Assembly (NCBI GenBank): GCA_963760095.1
Contig: CAVXBT010000014.1
Location: 64,359-128,358 of the forward strand
Origin: an uncultured Actinomycetota bacterium
GTDB lineage: Bacteria; Actinomycetota; Actinomycetes; Mycobacteriales; Mycobacteriaceae
DNA: 64,000 nt
Reading direction: 5' to 3'
Each line of letters begins with the position of its first letter. The first letter of the stretch is position 1. Shown here piece after piece: positions 44,713-55,084 of this stretch. The notes under the pieces are model-generated. The model searched no databases. It was not told where the DNA came from and saw only the letters and a list, made by a program, of their open reading frames with translations. Made by a program: the position numbers and the translations under genes.

Positions 44713-46563
<1,851 letters not shown>

Positions 46564-46705: not shown

Positions 46706-47095
46706 CTAGTTCGTGGCCGGGACGATCCGCACCGGGATGTCGGTGTTTTCGTCGGTGTAGTAGCTCGCGCACACGCGGTGGTAGCCGTCGGCGATCTGCA
46801 GTGCCACGCCAGTGTTGAGGTCACCGCGCACGGCCAGGATGGGGGACAGCGGCCTGCCCTTCTTGATCTTCTTCAGATCCGCCAACACGTGCGGGTTGTC
46901 GGCAGGCAGCAGCGCCAAGCTCGATGCCCGCAGCAGATCCTTGGCCTTTTTGTGCACGATCGGGGCTTTCTTCAGCGCTGCCACGATTTCATCGATTTGT
47001 GCAGCCGTCGCGAGCAGGGCGAGATAGTCCGCGGCCGCCGGATAGTCATGCTCGTCCGGTGCTTCGCCCCATAGCACCCCGCTGCCACTAGCCAT
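46706..47095 (-). CDS. Small stand-alone ParB/Srx-like domain protein
   Basis: 129 aa; LSPILAVRG...LQIADGYHRVCA matches the ParB/sulfiredoxin DGxHR motif. No HTH. Confidence 0.7.
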   Translation of the reverse strand: MASGSGVLWGEAPDEHDYPAAADYLALLATAAQIDEIVAALKKAPIVHKKAKDLLRASSLALLPADNPHVLADLKKIKKGRPLSPILAVRGDLNTGVALQIADGYHRVCASYYTDENTDIPVRIVPATN

Positions 47096-47546
47096 CGCGA
47101 CCACCCTTCTCAGCACGTCTACGCCGGGCATCCATTAGCCACATTGATATCAAATGCCGGAAAAGCGTTGTCGTTATCTGAACGGTTGGCGACGAGGCCG
47201 TGGTCACTTCGGGCTTCGGTCGGCGGGGTTCCGCACGCTTCTGCCGCCGCTTTCGAGGTGCATGAGCCCTAGCCGCTCCACTCGGCGGTACTGCCGGCTT
47301 GGCTGCGGGCGCAGCGCCGACAACTCCTCTTCCTTCCCGCTGCGCACAACATTGCTAGGGCAGGCGAACGACCGAGGGATCTTGATTACCTGCCAATGCG
47401 AACCCTGGCGTCCCGTTCGTGGGGAGTGTGCGCCCCACAATCGTTGTGTTGACCCTTCGATTGGAAGTCGGGTAGTTCACTACGCATGCGGCCCTGCGGT
47501 CGATGTTTTTACGGTCGAGGCACCGCAACACAATCAGGAGGGTCCA

Positions 47547-48386
47547 ATGACCGTTGTGCAGGAGAAGCGGCCAGTCAAAACCGCCAAGCAAGAGCAGGAC
47601 TGGAGCCATGTTCGTGGCTACGGCTGGCGACCGCAGCTGCCGGACGCCCGGGACAGGGTCTATGCGCCGAGGCTCGAGAGCCTGCCCCCCGAGTACGACT
47701 TGCGGCCGTCCATGCCGCCGGTCTACGACCAGGGCCAGCTCGGATCGTGCACCGGAAATGCGATCGCCGGAGCGATGGAATACGAGCGCGATCGCCAGGG
47801 GTTGTCCGATTTCGTTCCGTCGCGGTTGTTCATCTACTACAACGAACGCGCACTGGAAGGCACCGTGTCCAACGACGCCGGTGCCGCGATCCGCGACGGC
47901 ATCAAGGTTGTCAACACCGGGGGCGTCTGCCCGGAGACGCTGTGGCCGTACAACATCGGGATGTTCACGGTGAAGCCGCCGCAGCGCTGCTACGTCGCCG
48001 CGAAGAAGGATACGGCGGTTCAGTACGAGGCGATCCAGACGCTGGGCGACCTCAAAGACGCGATCGCGTCCAATCTCTCGGTCGTGTTCGGGTTCACCGT
48101 GCACCAGAGCTTCGAATCGCAGGCCGTCGCCCAGACGGGCGTGATGCCGTTGCCTACGCCCGGTGATGCCGTGGTCGGCGGCCATGCAGTTCTCGCAGTG
48201 GGTTACTCGGATCCCAAGGGTCAGCTCATCGTTCGCAACTCGTGGGGAGCCTCGTGGGGTGACCACGGCTACTTCTACATGCCTTACCAGTATGTGACCG
48301 GGTCCAAGCTGAGCGTTGATAGCTCACCGATCGATCACGTGCACTTGGCCAGCGACTTCTGGGCGATCCAGATGGTTTCGTCGTAG
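47547..48386 (+). CDS. C1 family papain-like cysteine protease, no signal peptide
   Basis: YDQGQLGSCTGNA (Gln, Cys), GGHAVLAVGY (His), VRNSWG (Asn). RBS AGGAGG upstream. Confidence 0.92.
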   Translation: MTVVQEKRPVKTAKQEQDWSHVRGYGWRPQLPDARDRVYAPRLESLPPEYDLRPSMPPVYDQGQLGSCTGNAIAGAMEYERDRQGLSDFVPSRLFIYYNERALEGTVSNDAGAAIRDGIKVVNTGGVCPETLWPYNIGMFTVKPPQRCYVAAKKDTAVQYEAIQTLGDLKDAIASNLSVVFGFTVHQSFESQAVAQTGVMPLPTPGDAVVGGHAVLAVGYSDPKGQLIVRNSWGASWGDHGYFYMPYQYVTGSKLSVDSSPIDHVHLASDFWAIQMVSS

Positions 48387-48690: not shown

Positions 48691-50187
48691 GTGACCGCCG
48701 TGCCTCCGCCCGGGCCAGGGCGCCGATCCCTGGTCAGCCCGATCGTGATGGGCGCGACCGTCGAACACCTTGTGCACACCGACCCGCAGGATCGACGTGC
48801 GGTGCTGGTCGAGCTTCGGCTGGACGCGGGCGTGAGGCCGGCCGCGGCTCGCCGCGGCTTCCTCGCACTGTTCACGGAGGTGTTCGGGAACGCGGGTCCA
48901 CCGCGACCGGTGCCCATCGCGCGACGTTACATGCGGTGCATGCTCACTCCCGACGAGATCACTCAGTTGCTGCGCGGAGGCGACTCGGCGACCCAGGCCG
49001 GAGCTCAACGCGCCCGTGGACTCATCTTTCACGTGTGGCCGGACCTGATCCTGCGCGCCCACATCGACCGCTCCATCAGCACCATCAAGGCCGACGCCGC
49101 CGCTCGTACGTTCCGCTGCGGCGGTGACGGCGTGGTGTGGGCAGTGATCGATTCGGGTGTTGACGCCAGCCACCCGCACTTCACCGCGCACCGCACGCTG
49201 TCGGTGCCGGGGGTCGCGAAACTGCACCGCGATTTCACGATCCCGTCGTCCCCGGACGCCAAGCCGTCCCCGCTCACCGACGCCTACGGGCACGGCACCC
49301 ACGTCGCCGGGATCATCGCCGGCGAGGCGCCGCCGGACGCCACGAGGCTGCGGATCGCCCACAATGAACCGACCATTCAGGACCTACCGCAGTGGGAGCT
49401 GCGCACGCTAGCGCAGGGCAGCACCTTGTCCGGCATGGCGCCGACGGCCGGCCTGGTCAGCCTCAAGGTCCTCGACGACAACGGCAACACGCAGTCGAGC
49501 GTGGTGATCCAGGCGATCGATTACGTCCGCACCGTCAACGCGGACGGCCGCGACCTGCAAATTCACGGCGTCAACCTGTCCCTCGGCTGTCCCTGGCCGC
49601 CGGGCGAGTACGCGGCAGGGCAAAGCCCGCTGTGCCGCGAATTGGACCTGCTGACCGGTACCGGCGTGGTAGCGGTCGTCAGTGCCGGAAACGAGGGCGC
49701 AGGCGGAACCCTGGAGGGCCCGTCCGCGGACGTGCGCGGGCAGTTGTCGACGATCACCGACCCCGGAAACGCGGCCACCGCCATCACCGTCGGATCTGTG
49801 CACCGCTACCGGCCGCACACCTACGGAGTGAGCTTCGACTCGTCGAAGGGGCCCACGCTGGACGGGCGCCTCAAGCCGGAACTGGTGGCGCCCGGTGAAG
49901 CCATCACCTCGGCCGCCACCGGGCAACTGGCCGCTGTTCCGCCGCTGGCACCCGCCGCGGGCGACCCTTCGAACGTGGCCCGCTACATCGAAGATAGCGG
50001 CACCTCGATGTCGGCGGCCCACGTTTCGGGGGCGATCGCTGCGTTCTTGTCGGTCCGCAGCGAGTACATCGGGCAGCCGGCGATGGTCAAGAAACTGTTG
50101 TGCGACTCCGCGACAGACCTGGGACGACACGAGTTCTACCAGGGTTCCGGCTTGATCGACCTGCTGCGGGCCCTGTCCAACACCTAG
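48691..50187 (+). CDS. S8 subtilisin-like serine protease with N-terminal prodomain, no signal peptide
   Basis: VIDSGV (Asp), HGTHVAG (His), SAGNEG (oxyanion Asn), GTSMSA (Ser), SSKGPTLDGRLKPELVAPG. Confidence 0.93.
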   Translation: MTAVPPPGPGRRSLVSPIVMGATVEHLVHTDPQDRRAVLVELRLDAGVRPAAARRGFLALFTEVFGNAGPPRPVPIARRYMRCMLTPDEITQLLRGGDSATQAGAQRARGLIFHVWPDLILRAHIDRSISTIKADAAARTFRCGGDGVVWAVIDSGVDASHPHFTAHRTLSVPGVAKLHRDFTIPSSPDAKPSPLTDAYGHGTHVAGIIAGEAPPDATRLRIAHNEPTIQDLPQWELRTLAQGSTLSGMAPTAGLVSLKVLDDNGNTQSSVVIQAIDYVRTVNADGRDLQIHGVNLSLGCPWPPGEYAAGQSPLCRELDLLTGTGVVAVVSAGNEGAGGTLEGPSADVRGQLSTITDPGNAATAITVGSVHRYRPHTYGVSFDSSKGPTLDGRLKPELVAPGEAITSAATGQLAAVPPLAPAAGDPSNVARYIEDSGTSMSAAHVSGAIAAFLSVRSEYIGQPAMVKKLLCDSATDLGRHEFYQGSGLIDLLRALSNT

Positions 50188-50197
50188 CCGCGAGGGG

Positions 50198-51478
50198 ATG
50201 AGGATCGTGACCGACTTCAACGGATTGACCTACTACGAGGTCGATTTCAACTCCGACGGCACACTCGACACCGCTGGCGGCGCGGGCGACGGCGGACTGC
50301 CGGCGGCGGTGGCCGCCGGCGGCATCAACGATCTGTTCGTGTTCTCACACGGCTGGAACAGCGGGGTGGATTCCGCGCGCGACCTCTATCAGGCGATGTT
50401 CGGGCTGCTGGCCAACCAGCTCGGCGGACATCTGTCGAGCAGTGCCGCGGTGGGGATCATCTGGCCCTCGCTGCTGTTTCCCGACGACGACCCCGACACC
50501 GCACCGCCGGTGCCGTCGACCGGCGCGCAGTTGGCCGCTGCGCTCACACCGGCCTTCCCGGGCCAGCAGCAGCAGCTGGCCACCATGGGTCAGTTGCTCG
50601 ACCAGCAACCCCAAGACCCGGTCAAACTGACCCAGTTCCATCAGCTCGCGGCCGGATTGGTGACCACACCGGCCCAAGGTGTCGAAGACACCGGCGAGGC
50701 GGCCCTGCTCACCGCCGACACCGCGACGGCATTCGGGCACGCGGCGGCCATGGCGCCACACGCCCCAAGCGGCGCGCAGGGCATCGGCAACCCGTTCACC
50801 GGGTTGTGGAGCGGCGCGCGTGAGGTGCTGCGCACCCTGAGTTACTACGAAATGAAGAACCGGGCCGGCGTGATCGGCCAGAGCGGCCTCGGCCCACTGC
50901 TCGCCGGCCTCACTGGGCCAGGCGGCCCACCGCGAATCCACCTGATGGGTCACAGTTTCGGGGCCCGGCTGGTCTCTTACTCCCTGGCGGGTCTGCGCGC
51001 CGATCAGACCGGCGCGGCCAGCCCGGTCAAATCGCTCACCCTGATCCAGGGCGCGTTTTCCCACTTCACTTTCGCCTCGTCCCTGATGTTCGATCCGTCC
51101 CGGGCGGGTGGGCTGGCGGGCGCCGGCAGCCGGGTCGACGGGCCCTTGCTGGCCACGTTCAGCAGCGCCGACCGGGCGTGCGGGTGGTGGTATCCGACGG
51201 CGAGCATGCTCGCCGGTCAGGACAGCGAATCCGCCACCGACCTGGTGTTTCGGTGGGGCGCGATGGGCCACGACGGGTACCAGCAGACCCCGACGCCTGC
51301 CACGGTGCTGCTGCAACCGCAGGGAAAGCCGTACAGCTTCGGGTCCGGCAACTTTTACGACCTGGATGCCAACGCGGTCATCTGCACCAACCAGTCCCCC
51401 ATCAGTGGGGCGCACAGTGACATCCGCCACCCAGAAGTGCTCTGGGCCGTCGTCGCCGCTGCGGGGCTCAGCACCTGA
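50198..51478 (+). CDS. Alpha/beta hydrolase (lipase/esterase-like), no signal peptide, coupled to the S8 protease
   Basis: FSHGWN oxyanion motif, GHSFG nucleophile elbow, FSSAD, GAHSDI. 10-bp gap with GAGGGG RBS after the S8 stop. Confidence 0.85.
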   Translation: MRIVTDFNGLTYYEVDFNSDGTLDTAGGAGDGGLPAAVAAGGINDLFVFSHGWNSGVDSARDLYQAMFGLLANQLGGHLSSSAAVGIIWPSLLFPDDDPDTAPPVPSTGAQLAAALTPAFPGQQQQLATMGQLLDQQPQDPVKLTQFHQLAAGLVTTPAQGVEDTGEAALLTADTATAFGHAAAMAPHAPSGAQGIGNPFTGLWSGAREVLRTLSYYEMKNRAGVIGQSGLGPLLAGLTGPGGPPRIHLMGHSFGARLVSYSLAGLRADQTGAASPVKSLTLIQGAFSHFTFASSLMFDPSRAGGLAGAGSRVDGPLLATFSSADRACGWWYPTASMLAGQDSESATDLVFRWGAMGHDGYQQTPTPATVLLQPQGKPYSFGSGNFYDLDANAVICTNQSPISGAHSDIRHPEVLWAVVAAAGLST

Positions 51479-51607: not shown

Positions 51608-53910
<2,303 letters not shown>

Positions 53911-53917
53911 CCCGCGG

Positions 53918-55084
53918 GTGAGCCCTGCCGATTCCCGCCGGATCGCGCGCTGCTCACTGATCGCCATGACCATGGCGTGGCTGCTTGCCGGCCAAAGGTT
54001 CCCGCCCGCCCACGCCGATCCACCGGCGCCCATGCCGGAACCGGTCCTGGGGCCGCTGGCGCCCGGTGAGGTGATCCGGATCGGTCCGACCGCGGGGACC
54101 GGGACGCCGACCCGTGACTACGGCATCGGGGCCACCGACTTGTGCGTGTTCATCGAGTTCCCCACGCAGGTGGTGCAGGTCTGCGGCGACAGTTTCGCCG
54201 GCCAGGGCGTCGGCTTCGGCGGTTACTATTCGCCGATCGCGTTGCGCGTGGACACGTCGTCCGTCGATGACCCGGACGGGGTCCGCTACACCGGGGTCAC
54301 CGGCGTCACGGAGCCGCTGCTGGCCGACCCAACGCCGTCGGGCGCATCCCAGCTACCGGCCGGCGTCGTGCAGATCAACCGGCAGAATTACCTGCTCGTC
54401 ACCACCACCAAAGACCTGGTGCCGCAGACCTCACGGTTGGTGAAAGCCGAACCCACACAAGGCTCTTGGCCGACCCTTCCGGGTTCGGTCCGGGAAGCCG
54501 ACTATGCGGGCGGCCGGCAGTCGCAGATCAGTGGCTACTACGACCCGATACCGACGTCTGAGTCGCAGACCGGCTGGGTGTACGTCGTCGCCGATGACTT
54601 CGACCGCAGTCAACCGGCGGTGCTCTACCGTGTTGCACCCCAACACTTCGGCGACCGTTCGCGGTGGCAGGGCTGGGCGTCGGGTCCTGATGGTGGTTGG
54701 GATAAGCAGCCAACGCCATTGTGGGGCGACCTGATCGGTGAGATCAGTTTCAAGCAGATCGACGGTAAGGCGGTGCTGTCGTATTTCAATTCGAGCACCG
54801 GAAACATGGAAGTGCGGGTGGCTGACGACCCGACCTCGCTGGGCAGTTCGCCGGTCACCACCGTGGTCCAGCACGACGACTGGCCCGAACCCGCGGAAAG
54901 CCTGCCGCCGCCTTACGACAACCGGCTGGCTCAGCCCTACGGTGGGTACATCTCCCCGGGCTCGACACTGGACGAGTTGCGAGTGTTCGTCAGTCAGTGG
55001 CACAACGTCGATCCGCGGGCCCGCTCCCCTTACCGGGTGATCCAGTTCGCGGTCAACCCGTTCAAGCCCTGGTCAGAGCCTTAG
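53918..55084 (+). CDS. DUF4185 protein, Rv3707c ortholog (GH183 endo-D-arabinanase family)
   Basis: Signal peptide, GATDLC...CGDSF, PYGGYI...FVSQW motifs; follows asd as in Mtb. Confidence 0.85.
   Translation: MSPADSRRIARCSLIAMTMAWLLAGQRFPPAHADPPAPMPEPVLGPLAPGEVIRIGPTAGTGTPTRDYGIGATDLCVFIEFPTQVVQVCGDSFAGQGVGFGGYYSPIALRVDTSSVDDPDGVRYTGVTGVTEPLLADPTPSGASQLPAGVVQINRQNYLLVTTTKDLVPQTSRLVKAEPTQGSWPTLPGSVREADYAGGRQSQISGYYDPIPTSESQTGWVYVVADDFDRSQPAVLYRVAPQHFGDRSRWQGWASGPDGGWDKQPTPLWGDLIGEISFKQIDGKAVLSYFNSSTGNMEVRVADDPTSLGSSPVTTVVQHDDWPEPAESLPPPYDNRLAQPYGGYISPGSTLDELRVFVSQWHNVDPRARSPYRVIQFAVNPFKPWSEP
55044..55069 (+). repeat. attL core AGTTCGCGGTCAACCCGTTCAAGCCC
   Basis: Last codons of the DUF4185 gene (FAVNPFKP); repeated at 56686. 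Confidence 0.88.

Follow-up and report, generated by a model that had tools for sequence, protein, structure and literature searches.

We describe a pair of adjacent genes, for a subtilase of peptidase family S8 and a DUF900-like α/β-hydrolase, found in the window, a 64,000-nucleotide stretch of contig CAVXBT010000014.1 from an uncultured Actinomycetota bacterium of the Mycobacteriaceae. The same pair recurs in many unrelated genomic contexts and in other phyla, and we propose that it may consist of a latent hydrolase and the protease that activates it. The gene content of the window is mycobacterial, with leuA at 44713-46530 (− strand), ask at 51608-52873 (+ strand) and then asd; the leuA-ask interval carries four additional genes, namely a 141-aa open reading frame (ORF), a C1 peptidase gene, the S8 gene and the hydrolase gene. 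A preliminary description of this DNA had recorded the last two as an S8 protease and an α/β-hydrolase with a GHSFG motif, and the ORF list, a match to Pfam PF00082 and the invariant residues described below bear it out: both ORFs are intact. All features of the pair given below are on the + strand.

The S8 gene (48691..50187) encodes a predicted cytoplasmic pro-enzyme of 498 aa that matches PF00082 with E=2.2e-42 and whose N-terminus is conserved from Met1. Its catalytic domain (49090..50184, from invariant alignment columns) has the Asp-His-Ser triad in subtilisin order together with the oxyanion Asn, as expected of an S8 member: Asp154 (codon 49150-49152), His201 (49291-49293), Asn295 (49573-49575) and Ser439 (50005-50007), all checked at the codon level. 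These four residues are invariant in 24 relatives, and the S8s partnered with the hydrolase in M. smegmatis, Burkholderia and Rhizobium keep the catalytic residues without exception. A further match (E=1.9e-47) is to the PADLOC 'subtilase' model PDLC03014, over positions 163-388 of the 391-position profile, i.e. its catalytic part. In the AlphaFold2 (AF2) model (predicted local distance difference test, pLDDT, 75; predicted template modelling score, pTM, 0.82), residues ~30-125 (48778..49065) form a β-α-β-α-α-β-β domain with pLDDT ~90, which a low-confidence junction (residues 127-133) joins to the catalytic domain. The top Foldseek matches of the model span both parts: unautoprocessed pro-subtilisin E (3whi, E=2.4e-18, 477 columns) and ProN-Tk-SP (3afg). 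Because of this fold and these pro-subtilisin matches, we take the N-terminal extension to be a classical I9-type propeptide. Such propeptides act both as intramolecular chaperone and as temporary inhibitor. The preliminary description had noticed the extension and put it at roughly 135 aa, somewhat above the ~125 aa that we find; its further suggestion that the extension could act as a sensor does not hold, since the AF2 model and Foldseek point to an ordinary I9 propeptide without sensor features.

Ahead of the propeptide, alignment of relatives reveals a conserved motif, RRSLVSPIVM (residues 12-20, 48724..48750), in which conservation is 90% or higher at Ser16 and Pro17 over the range from Mycobacterium to Pseudonocardiales and Kitasatospora. 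A twin-arginine translocation (Tat) signal at this position was considered and rejected, as the h-region is too short and some relatives begin right at the motif. The S8 contains no hydrophobic segment (maximum Kyte-Doolittle 19-residue mean 1.24), nor does the hydrolase (maximum likewise about 1.2), and neither an export signal nor a transmembrane segment was found in it or in the hydrolase; both proteins are therefore taken as cytoplasmic. The partnered S8 of M. smegmatis has an extra N-terminal domain. Identity with IetS, the protease of the IetAS system (Gao et al. 2020), was likewise rejected: the S8 matches IetS models weakly (NCBIfam IteS, 33.9 bits against a cut-off of 900), and no IetA ATPase gene is present as a neighbor in the leuA-ask gap.

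The hydrolase, 423 aa from a conserved GTG start (50207..51478), shows the marks of the α/β-hydrolase superfamily, i.e. nucleophile elbow, acid, His, oxyanion-hole motif and predicted α/β core. Invariant across its actinobacterial, proteobacterial and cyanobacterial members are the oxyanion-hole motif HGW at residues 48-50 (50348..50356), WPS at residues 86-88, a SYYEMKNRAG helix, the nucleophile Ser250 in GHSFG (50954..50956), Asp322 (51170-51172) and His403 (51413-51415), the catalytic codons again having been checked. The protein, lipase/cutinase-like in kind, is predicted to be soluble and catalytically competent, though probably latent. Its AF2 model (pLDDT 83.8, pTM 0.88) has the α/β core and six confident helices over residues ~106-233. 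These helices belong to a conserved cap or insert of ~140 residues (residues ~90-235, 50474..50911) on the active-site side, which follows the WPS strand, precedes the nucleophile strand and is present in the actinobacterial, proteobacterial and cyanobacterial members alike. The insert had been described as a low-complexity Ala/Gln-rich segment before GHSFG; it is indeed rich in Ala, Pro and Gln (A 19%, P 11%, Q 11%), but it is not of low complexity, being helical, as conserved as the core (block conservation 0.65-0.93), and bearing the invariant SYYEMKNRAGV helix. Within it, one variable loop (residues 181-192, AMAPHAPSGAQG, 50747..50782) has both the lowest conservation (0.53) and the lowest pLDDT (56). 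This loop precedes an (A/G)(Q/A)G(L/I)G(N/D) motif that is found in the window, M. smegmatis, Burkholderia, Rhizobium and Rhodococcus members and is absent from the cyanobacterial members that are paired with CHAT/C25 proteases.

A family similar in layout is DUF900 (PF05990), which shares the order HGW ... WPS ... Y-x-x-x-K/R helix ... GHSxG; it differs in that the hydrolase here has a much larger helical insert and falls below threshold, with no PF05990 match at E<=0.01. Its relatives and the fusion proteins described below do match DUF900, though weakly (E=2e-4 to 8e-7), and the M. smegmatis homologue carries a precomputed PF05990 match. We know of no established function for DUF900. Many homologues of the hydrolase (P0065, P0070, P0089, P0104, P0108 and others) are named 'serine/threonine protein kinase' by NCBI/UniRef; judging from their sequences, which have no kinase features and do have a Ser-Asp-His triad, this looks like a propagated misannotation.

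The S8 gene ends with TAG at 50185-50187, followed by CCGCGAGGGG and then by ATG 50198. A gap of 10 bp, as first reported, is thus literally correct when counted to this ATG, but the likely start is GTG 50207, the equivalent of which is where relatives begin in a start comparison; the ATG would lengthen the protein by 3 aa. A ribosome-binding site (RBS) had been placed in the gap, and a Shine-Dalgarno-like GAGGGG does lie there (50192..50197), 9 nt before GTG 50207, and purine-rich boxes are equally spaced from the conserved start in more than 70 relatives; it abuts ATG 50198. From the relatives' start and the position of the box, the hydrolase gene is likely 50207-51478, with a 19-nt gap to the S8 gene and 9 nt between RBS and start codon. 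Scans of the surroundings of the S8 gene for promoters, terminators, Rfam families and inverted repeats gave nothing above chance.

To place the pair more broadly we gathered 80 loci from species-representative genomes, with hydrolase identities of 55-92%, covering Mycobacteriaceae, Rhodococcus, Streptosporangiaceae, Micromonosporaceae, Pseudonocardiales, Kitasatospora and Pseudarthrobacter. An S8 gene lies directly upstream of the hydrolase gene in 76 of the 80, with gaps of ~0-36 nt, and the loci fall into at least 43 unrelated genomic contexts, the leuA-ask position being common to close relatives only. The same order was seen in all four further loci at ~45% identity, on a Burkholderia plasmid, on Rhizobium johnstonii pRL11, and in M. 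smegmatis, where the S8 gene precedes the hydrolase homologue by 15 nt. In M. smegmatis mc2155 (L100) the S8 has 613 aa and the hydrolase 443 aa, and the gene of a LuxR-STAND regulator adjoins them. The two proteins also co-diverge: their pairwise identities correlate with r=0.93 (66 pairs), and across phyla the S8s that accompany the hydrolase fall into a single subfamily (43-47% identity). Fusion of the hydrolase to an S8 is predicted for two proteins, of 957 and 992 aa; long 'open frames' in four genomes had also been candidates for fusions and were rejected, as they are separate S8 and hydrolase genes. The coupling asserted in the preliminary description is in this way upheld, and the sequence comparisons support the pair as a functional unit, its adjacency being far beyond chance.

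The hydrolase family is sizeable (1,870 clusters at 50% identity) and its occurrence patchy: 8 of 41 relatives have it, as do 26 of 301 Actinomycetota genomes, concentrated in two families. There were 27 plasmid matches, mostly on large replicons, 13 of them typed as non-mobilizable. We regard the S8-hydrolase pair as an operon of two genes that is self-contained and moves horizontally.

Several homologues have a different protease at their side. (i) In Nostoc, Scytonema, Planktothrix and Trichocoleus (L091, L093, L094, L095), the hydrolase homologue adjoins a C25-like cysteine peptidase and a CHAT-nSTAND1-WD40 giant. (ii) The Mycolicibacterium litorale hydrolase, 72% identical to that of the window, has no S8; an M4 thermolysin-like peptidase is encoded upstream and a CHAT-TPR-S giant downstream. 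(iii) One of the other three S8-less loci (L056) has a neighbor with an HExxH...ExxxD motif. The hydrolase thus looks, from these sequence comparisons, like a constant 'effector' served by interchangeable proteases of types S8, C25/CHAT and M4; a near-constant hydrolase beside unrelated proteases is what would be expected if the hydrolase is both the substrate of the protease and the effector. Sensors occur with relatives as well, in the CHAT-nSTAND1-WD40 and CHAT-TPR-S proteins, and the extra N-terminal domain of the M. smegmatis S8 is counted with them.

Two of the S8-less neighborhoods have further peculiarities. The M. litorale giant (1,886 aa, L030 11205-16862) contains two DUF7379 regions, an LCAT-like α/β-hydrolase, a CHAT protease and a TPR-S sensor; its DUF7379 and LCAT-like domains were considered as relatives of the hydrolase and rejected, as only the nucleophile elbow is in common. 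On the Rhodococcus rhodochrous plasmid pNit (L089 3903-5429), a hydrolase homologue with 41% identity is preceded by the gene for a 508-aa protein that is not an S8 and gave no match to Pfam, to PDB chains by sequence, or to the S8 profile; it may be an unrecognized partner of the hydrolase.

Accessory genes accompany the pair in 27 of the 80 loci, in at least five gene orders: a LuxR-type STAND regulator (AAA_16-TPR-GerE) in 26 and an 'animal haem peroxidase' in 19. The latter is a full-length homologue of the plant fatty-acid α-dioxygenase (4kvj, E=1.8e-111). Plant α-dioxygenases belong to the same haem family as cyclooxygenase. A peroxidase-family gene also lies upstream of the hydrolase homologue in Nostoc MS1. 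The genome of the window has a single α-dioxygenase-like gene in 5.95 Mb, on another contig, near lipoxygenase-like and cyclase-STAND genes, and with one such gene per 5.95 Mb, chance proximity would be well below 1% per locus. The recurrent α-dioxygenase linkage supports an acyl lipid as the substrate of the hydrolase.

This oxygenase cluster of the window's own genome (G000) lies on contig 9 (L098 4967-12359). One arm of a divergent pair encodes a zinc-ribbon adenylate/guanylate cyclase-AAA_16 STAND protein of 1083 aa, and the other a fatty-acid α-dioxygenase-like haem peroxidase of 764 aa followed by a lipoxygenase-like protein of 516 aa. This is possibly a bacterial oxylipin cluster.

The nearest experimental parallel is a caspase-hydrolase module. 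In Lysobacter capsici AZ78, LcCaspase cuts LcHydrolase at two R|G sites and the N and C fragments together kill E. coli, the substrate being unknown; the hydrolase was shown to be a zymogen that becomes active once a fragment is excised (Evans et al. 2025, preprint, PMC12642450). The linkage had been predicted earlier, when it was noted that caspase domains in conflict systems always have an α/β-hydrolase neighbor (Kaur et al. 2020, PMC7159879). As in that module, a dedicated protease gene here adjoins an α/β-hydrolase gene, the effector is widespread in Actinobacteria and Proteobacteria, and the proteases found with relatives carry WD40 or STAND sensors as fused domains. Compared by description, LcHydrolase has its inhibitory fragment after the N-terminal sheet and before the part with lid and nucleophile, which is the topological place of the insert here. 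The differences are that the window's protease is an S8 with an I9 propeptide and no sensor domain, so that the sensor counted among the marks of such modules is absent, and that no conserved R|G cleavage motif is evident in the hydrolase. Conserved adjacency and co-evolution, another mark of a protease-effector module, are found in the pair (76 of 80 loci; r=0.93; other phyla). By analogy, this S8-served, DUF900-like, sensor-less version would be a variant of the known protease-hydrolase module. No hydrolase of the present family was found beside C14 caspases within the 1.5-kb flanks of 30 loci from 201 Actinomycetota genomes, a result that is uninformative on homology with LcHydrolase.

Two further groups offer partial parallels. 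The subtilase-linked metallo-β-lactamase (MBL) pro-nuclease modules ('Clade 3', Evans et al. 2025; Tuck et al. 2025) likewise set an S8 beside a latent hydrolytic effector that is licensed by proteolysis; their effector is an MBL nuclease and its target is DNA. The text of Evans et al. 2025 (PMC12642450) names subtilisin-type partners for no effector but the MBL nuclease, and no description of an S8 plus DUF900-like pair was found in the literature searched. Among gasdermin systems, the bacterial bGSDM proteins occur with caspase-like or CHAT proteases, and fungal HET-Q1 is cut by the subtilisin HET-Q2 (PMC8851545). An adjacent protease that releases an autoinhibited, membrane-attacking effector is what we propose here too, and in fungi subtilases do this; the effector here, by contrast, is an enzyme and not a pore-former, and has no gasdermin homology.

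We thus propose, on the analogy of the caspase-hydrolase module of Evans et al. 2025, that the S8-hydrolase pair could be a protease-activated hydrolase zymogen, a reading that we consider the likeliest, if about evenly poised between right and wrong. The preliminary description had already suggested that the protease senses a trigger and cleaves the hydrolase, releasing an activity that degrades membrane lipids (abortive infection), and this interpretation is supported in part by the comparisons. We infer a direction of action from protease to hydrolase, with the cleavage sites, lipid substrate, toxicity and trigger that this entails, along the following lines. The S8 would free itself from its propeptide and then cut the hydrolase in or around the cap. 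The loop at ~181-192 is the best candidate cleavage region in view of its sequence variability and its low confidence in the model, and a second cut might fall near residues ~92-105. Cleavage would turn the zymogen into an active acyl-ester (lipid) hydrolase, and the outcome could be a conflict or defense response, in which membranes are damaged and the cell dies or stops growing, and/or the release of free fatty acids. As the window S8 has no sensor domain, control of it is placed in transcription, through the LuxR-STAND regulators, or in propeptide removal, one of which is probably where it lies; the N-terminal RRSLVSPIVM motif is another candidate restraint.

A number of observations count against this proposal. 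No fused sensor domain was found in the window S8, which has only its propeptide and the short N-terminal motif, and to our knowledge most characterized protease-effector modules have a protease with a sensor. By sequence or profile, the hydrolase matched no model in Pfam, NCBIfam or PADLOC and no PDB entry, and its Foldseek matches to the PDB were weak (all E>=0.035); these weak matches are all minimal lipases or esterases, i.e. the Nir2 DDHD (PLA1-like) domain, cutinases, LpqC, Bacillus LipA and LCAT, and in that respect they hint at a lipid substrate. LcHydrolase, compared by description, has ~295 aa against 423 aa here. The cap is well conserved and confidently folded, and could be a substrate-binding lid with no need for cleavage. 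As for the genomic setting, the flanking genes of 37 contexts are ordinary metabolic and regulatory genes, and defense models were not enriched among 134 nearest-neighbor proteins (37 of the 43 contexts), which gave one reverse-transcriptase-like match and a few stray ones. An anti-phage role in particular is disfavored by these flanks and by the lack of a fused sensor in the window S8, and also by the absence of any match to the hydrolase in 50,697 phage records and by a single weak match in IMG/VR.

The same genomic setting lends itself to a non-lethal explanation, which we consider unlikely but the most probable of the alternatives: a pathway of lipid mediators or lipid remodeling, in which the free fatty acids released by a regulated lipase feed an α-dioxygenase or lipoxygenase-like oxygenase (an oxylipin route) under LuxR-STAND control, the S8 acts as maturation or turnover protease, and no suicide is involved. 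It would account for the α-dioxygenase homologue adjoining the pair in 19 of the 80 loci, in at least four gene orders and often with a LAL regulator, for the peroxidase-family gene beside the Nostoc homologue, for the α-dioxygenase-like, lipoxygenase-like and cyclase-STAND cluster on another contig of the window's genome, and for flanks with no defense-island signature. However, most loci, that of the window included, have no oxygenase nearby; the homologues of cyanobacteria and M. litorale have CHAT-STAND-WD40 or CHAT-TPR-S proteins for neighbors, a classical death/immunity architecture; and a patchy, mobile distribution is atypical of core lipid metabolism.

Adjacency and co-divergence prove a functional link only and not its direction, so the two enzymes might instead act in sequence on a third substrate, for example an acylated peptide or protein that they would degrade or mature; the hydrolase would then be an esterase or peptidase that the S8 does not cut. 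α/β-Hydrolases of similar size do include peptidases, and lipase or oligopeptidase similarity is reported for the hydrolase of Evans et al. We nonetheless judge this arrangement improbable: the replacement of S8 by the unrelated C25/CHAT and M4 proteases beside a near-unchanged hydrolase is easier to understand if the hydrolase is the substrate, and no third gene is conserved across the contexts. Export of the two proteins as nutritional or cell-envelope enzymes, i.e. as a secreted protease with a lipase or cutinase, or with the S8 as a mycosin-type secretion-associated protease, can practically be dismissed, for while most I9-propeptide subtilases are secreted and the type VII secretion system (T7SS) mycosin is the best NCBIfam match, that match is far below threshold (TIGR03921, 82.3 bits against a cut-off of 278.75), no T7SS (ESX) genes are nearby, the S8 has no hydrophobic segment and neither protein a signal peptide or transmembrane segment, and the N-terminal motif, at which some relatives start, is not a Tat signal.

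If the pair is a protease-activated zymogen as we propose, it would add to a logic, that of protease-licensed latent death enzymes, which was shown only in 2025 to be a major one in bacterial immunity. The α-dioxygenase linkage is a first testable clue to an acyl lipid target. The hydrolase family is large, occurs with at least three unrelated protease classes and has a homologous pair in M. smegmatis. More speculatively, and in our estimate with a rather low chance of being right, the pair might release the lipids in a bacterial equivalent of the lipid-mediator immunity of eukaryotes, comprising a protease-licensed lipase, oxidation by α-dioxygenase and lipoxygenase-like enzymes, and STAND-LuxR control, and re-wirable to subtilase, caspase-like or metalloprotease triggers. 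If true, the lipid-oxidation link would tie the cell-death modules of bacteria to the cascades from lipase to oxygenase that serve immunity in plants and animals.

A few other genes lie near the pair. A signal-less, papain-like C1 cysteine peptidase (PF00112, E=7e-14) is encoded ~300 bp 5' of the S8 gene, at window positions 47547-48386 (+ strand). An orthologue is found at the same place in several related leuA-ask islands, and Mycolicibacter senuensis (L038) has a 28%-identical C1 peptidase directly 3' of the hydrolase; the C1 peptidase may be a loosely associated third protease. Among relatives, just the two closest (L009, L024) share the 141-aa ORF (46706-47131, − strand); it has no family match, and a ParB/sulfiredoxin-like 'DGYHR' motif was seen in it by eye. 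Beyond the island, and apparently unrelated to the cassette, a DUF4185 protein (E=1.5e-51) is encoded 3' of asd, at 53918-55084 (+ strand).

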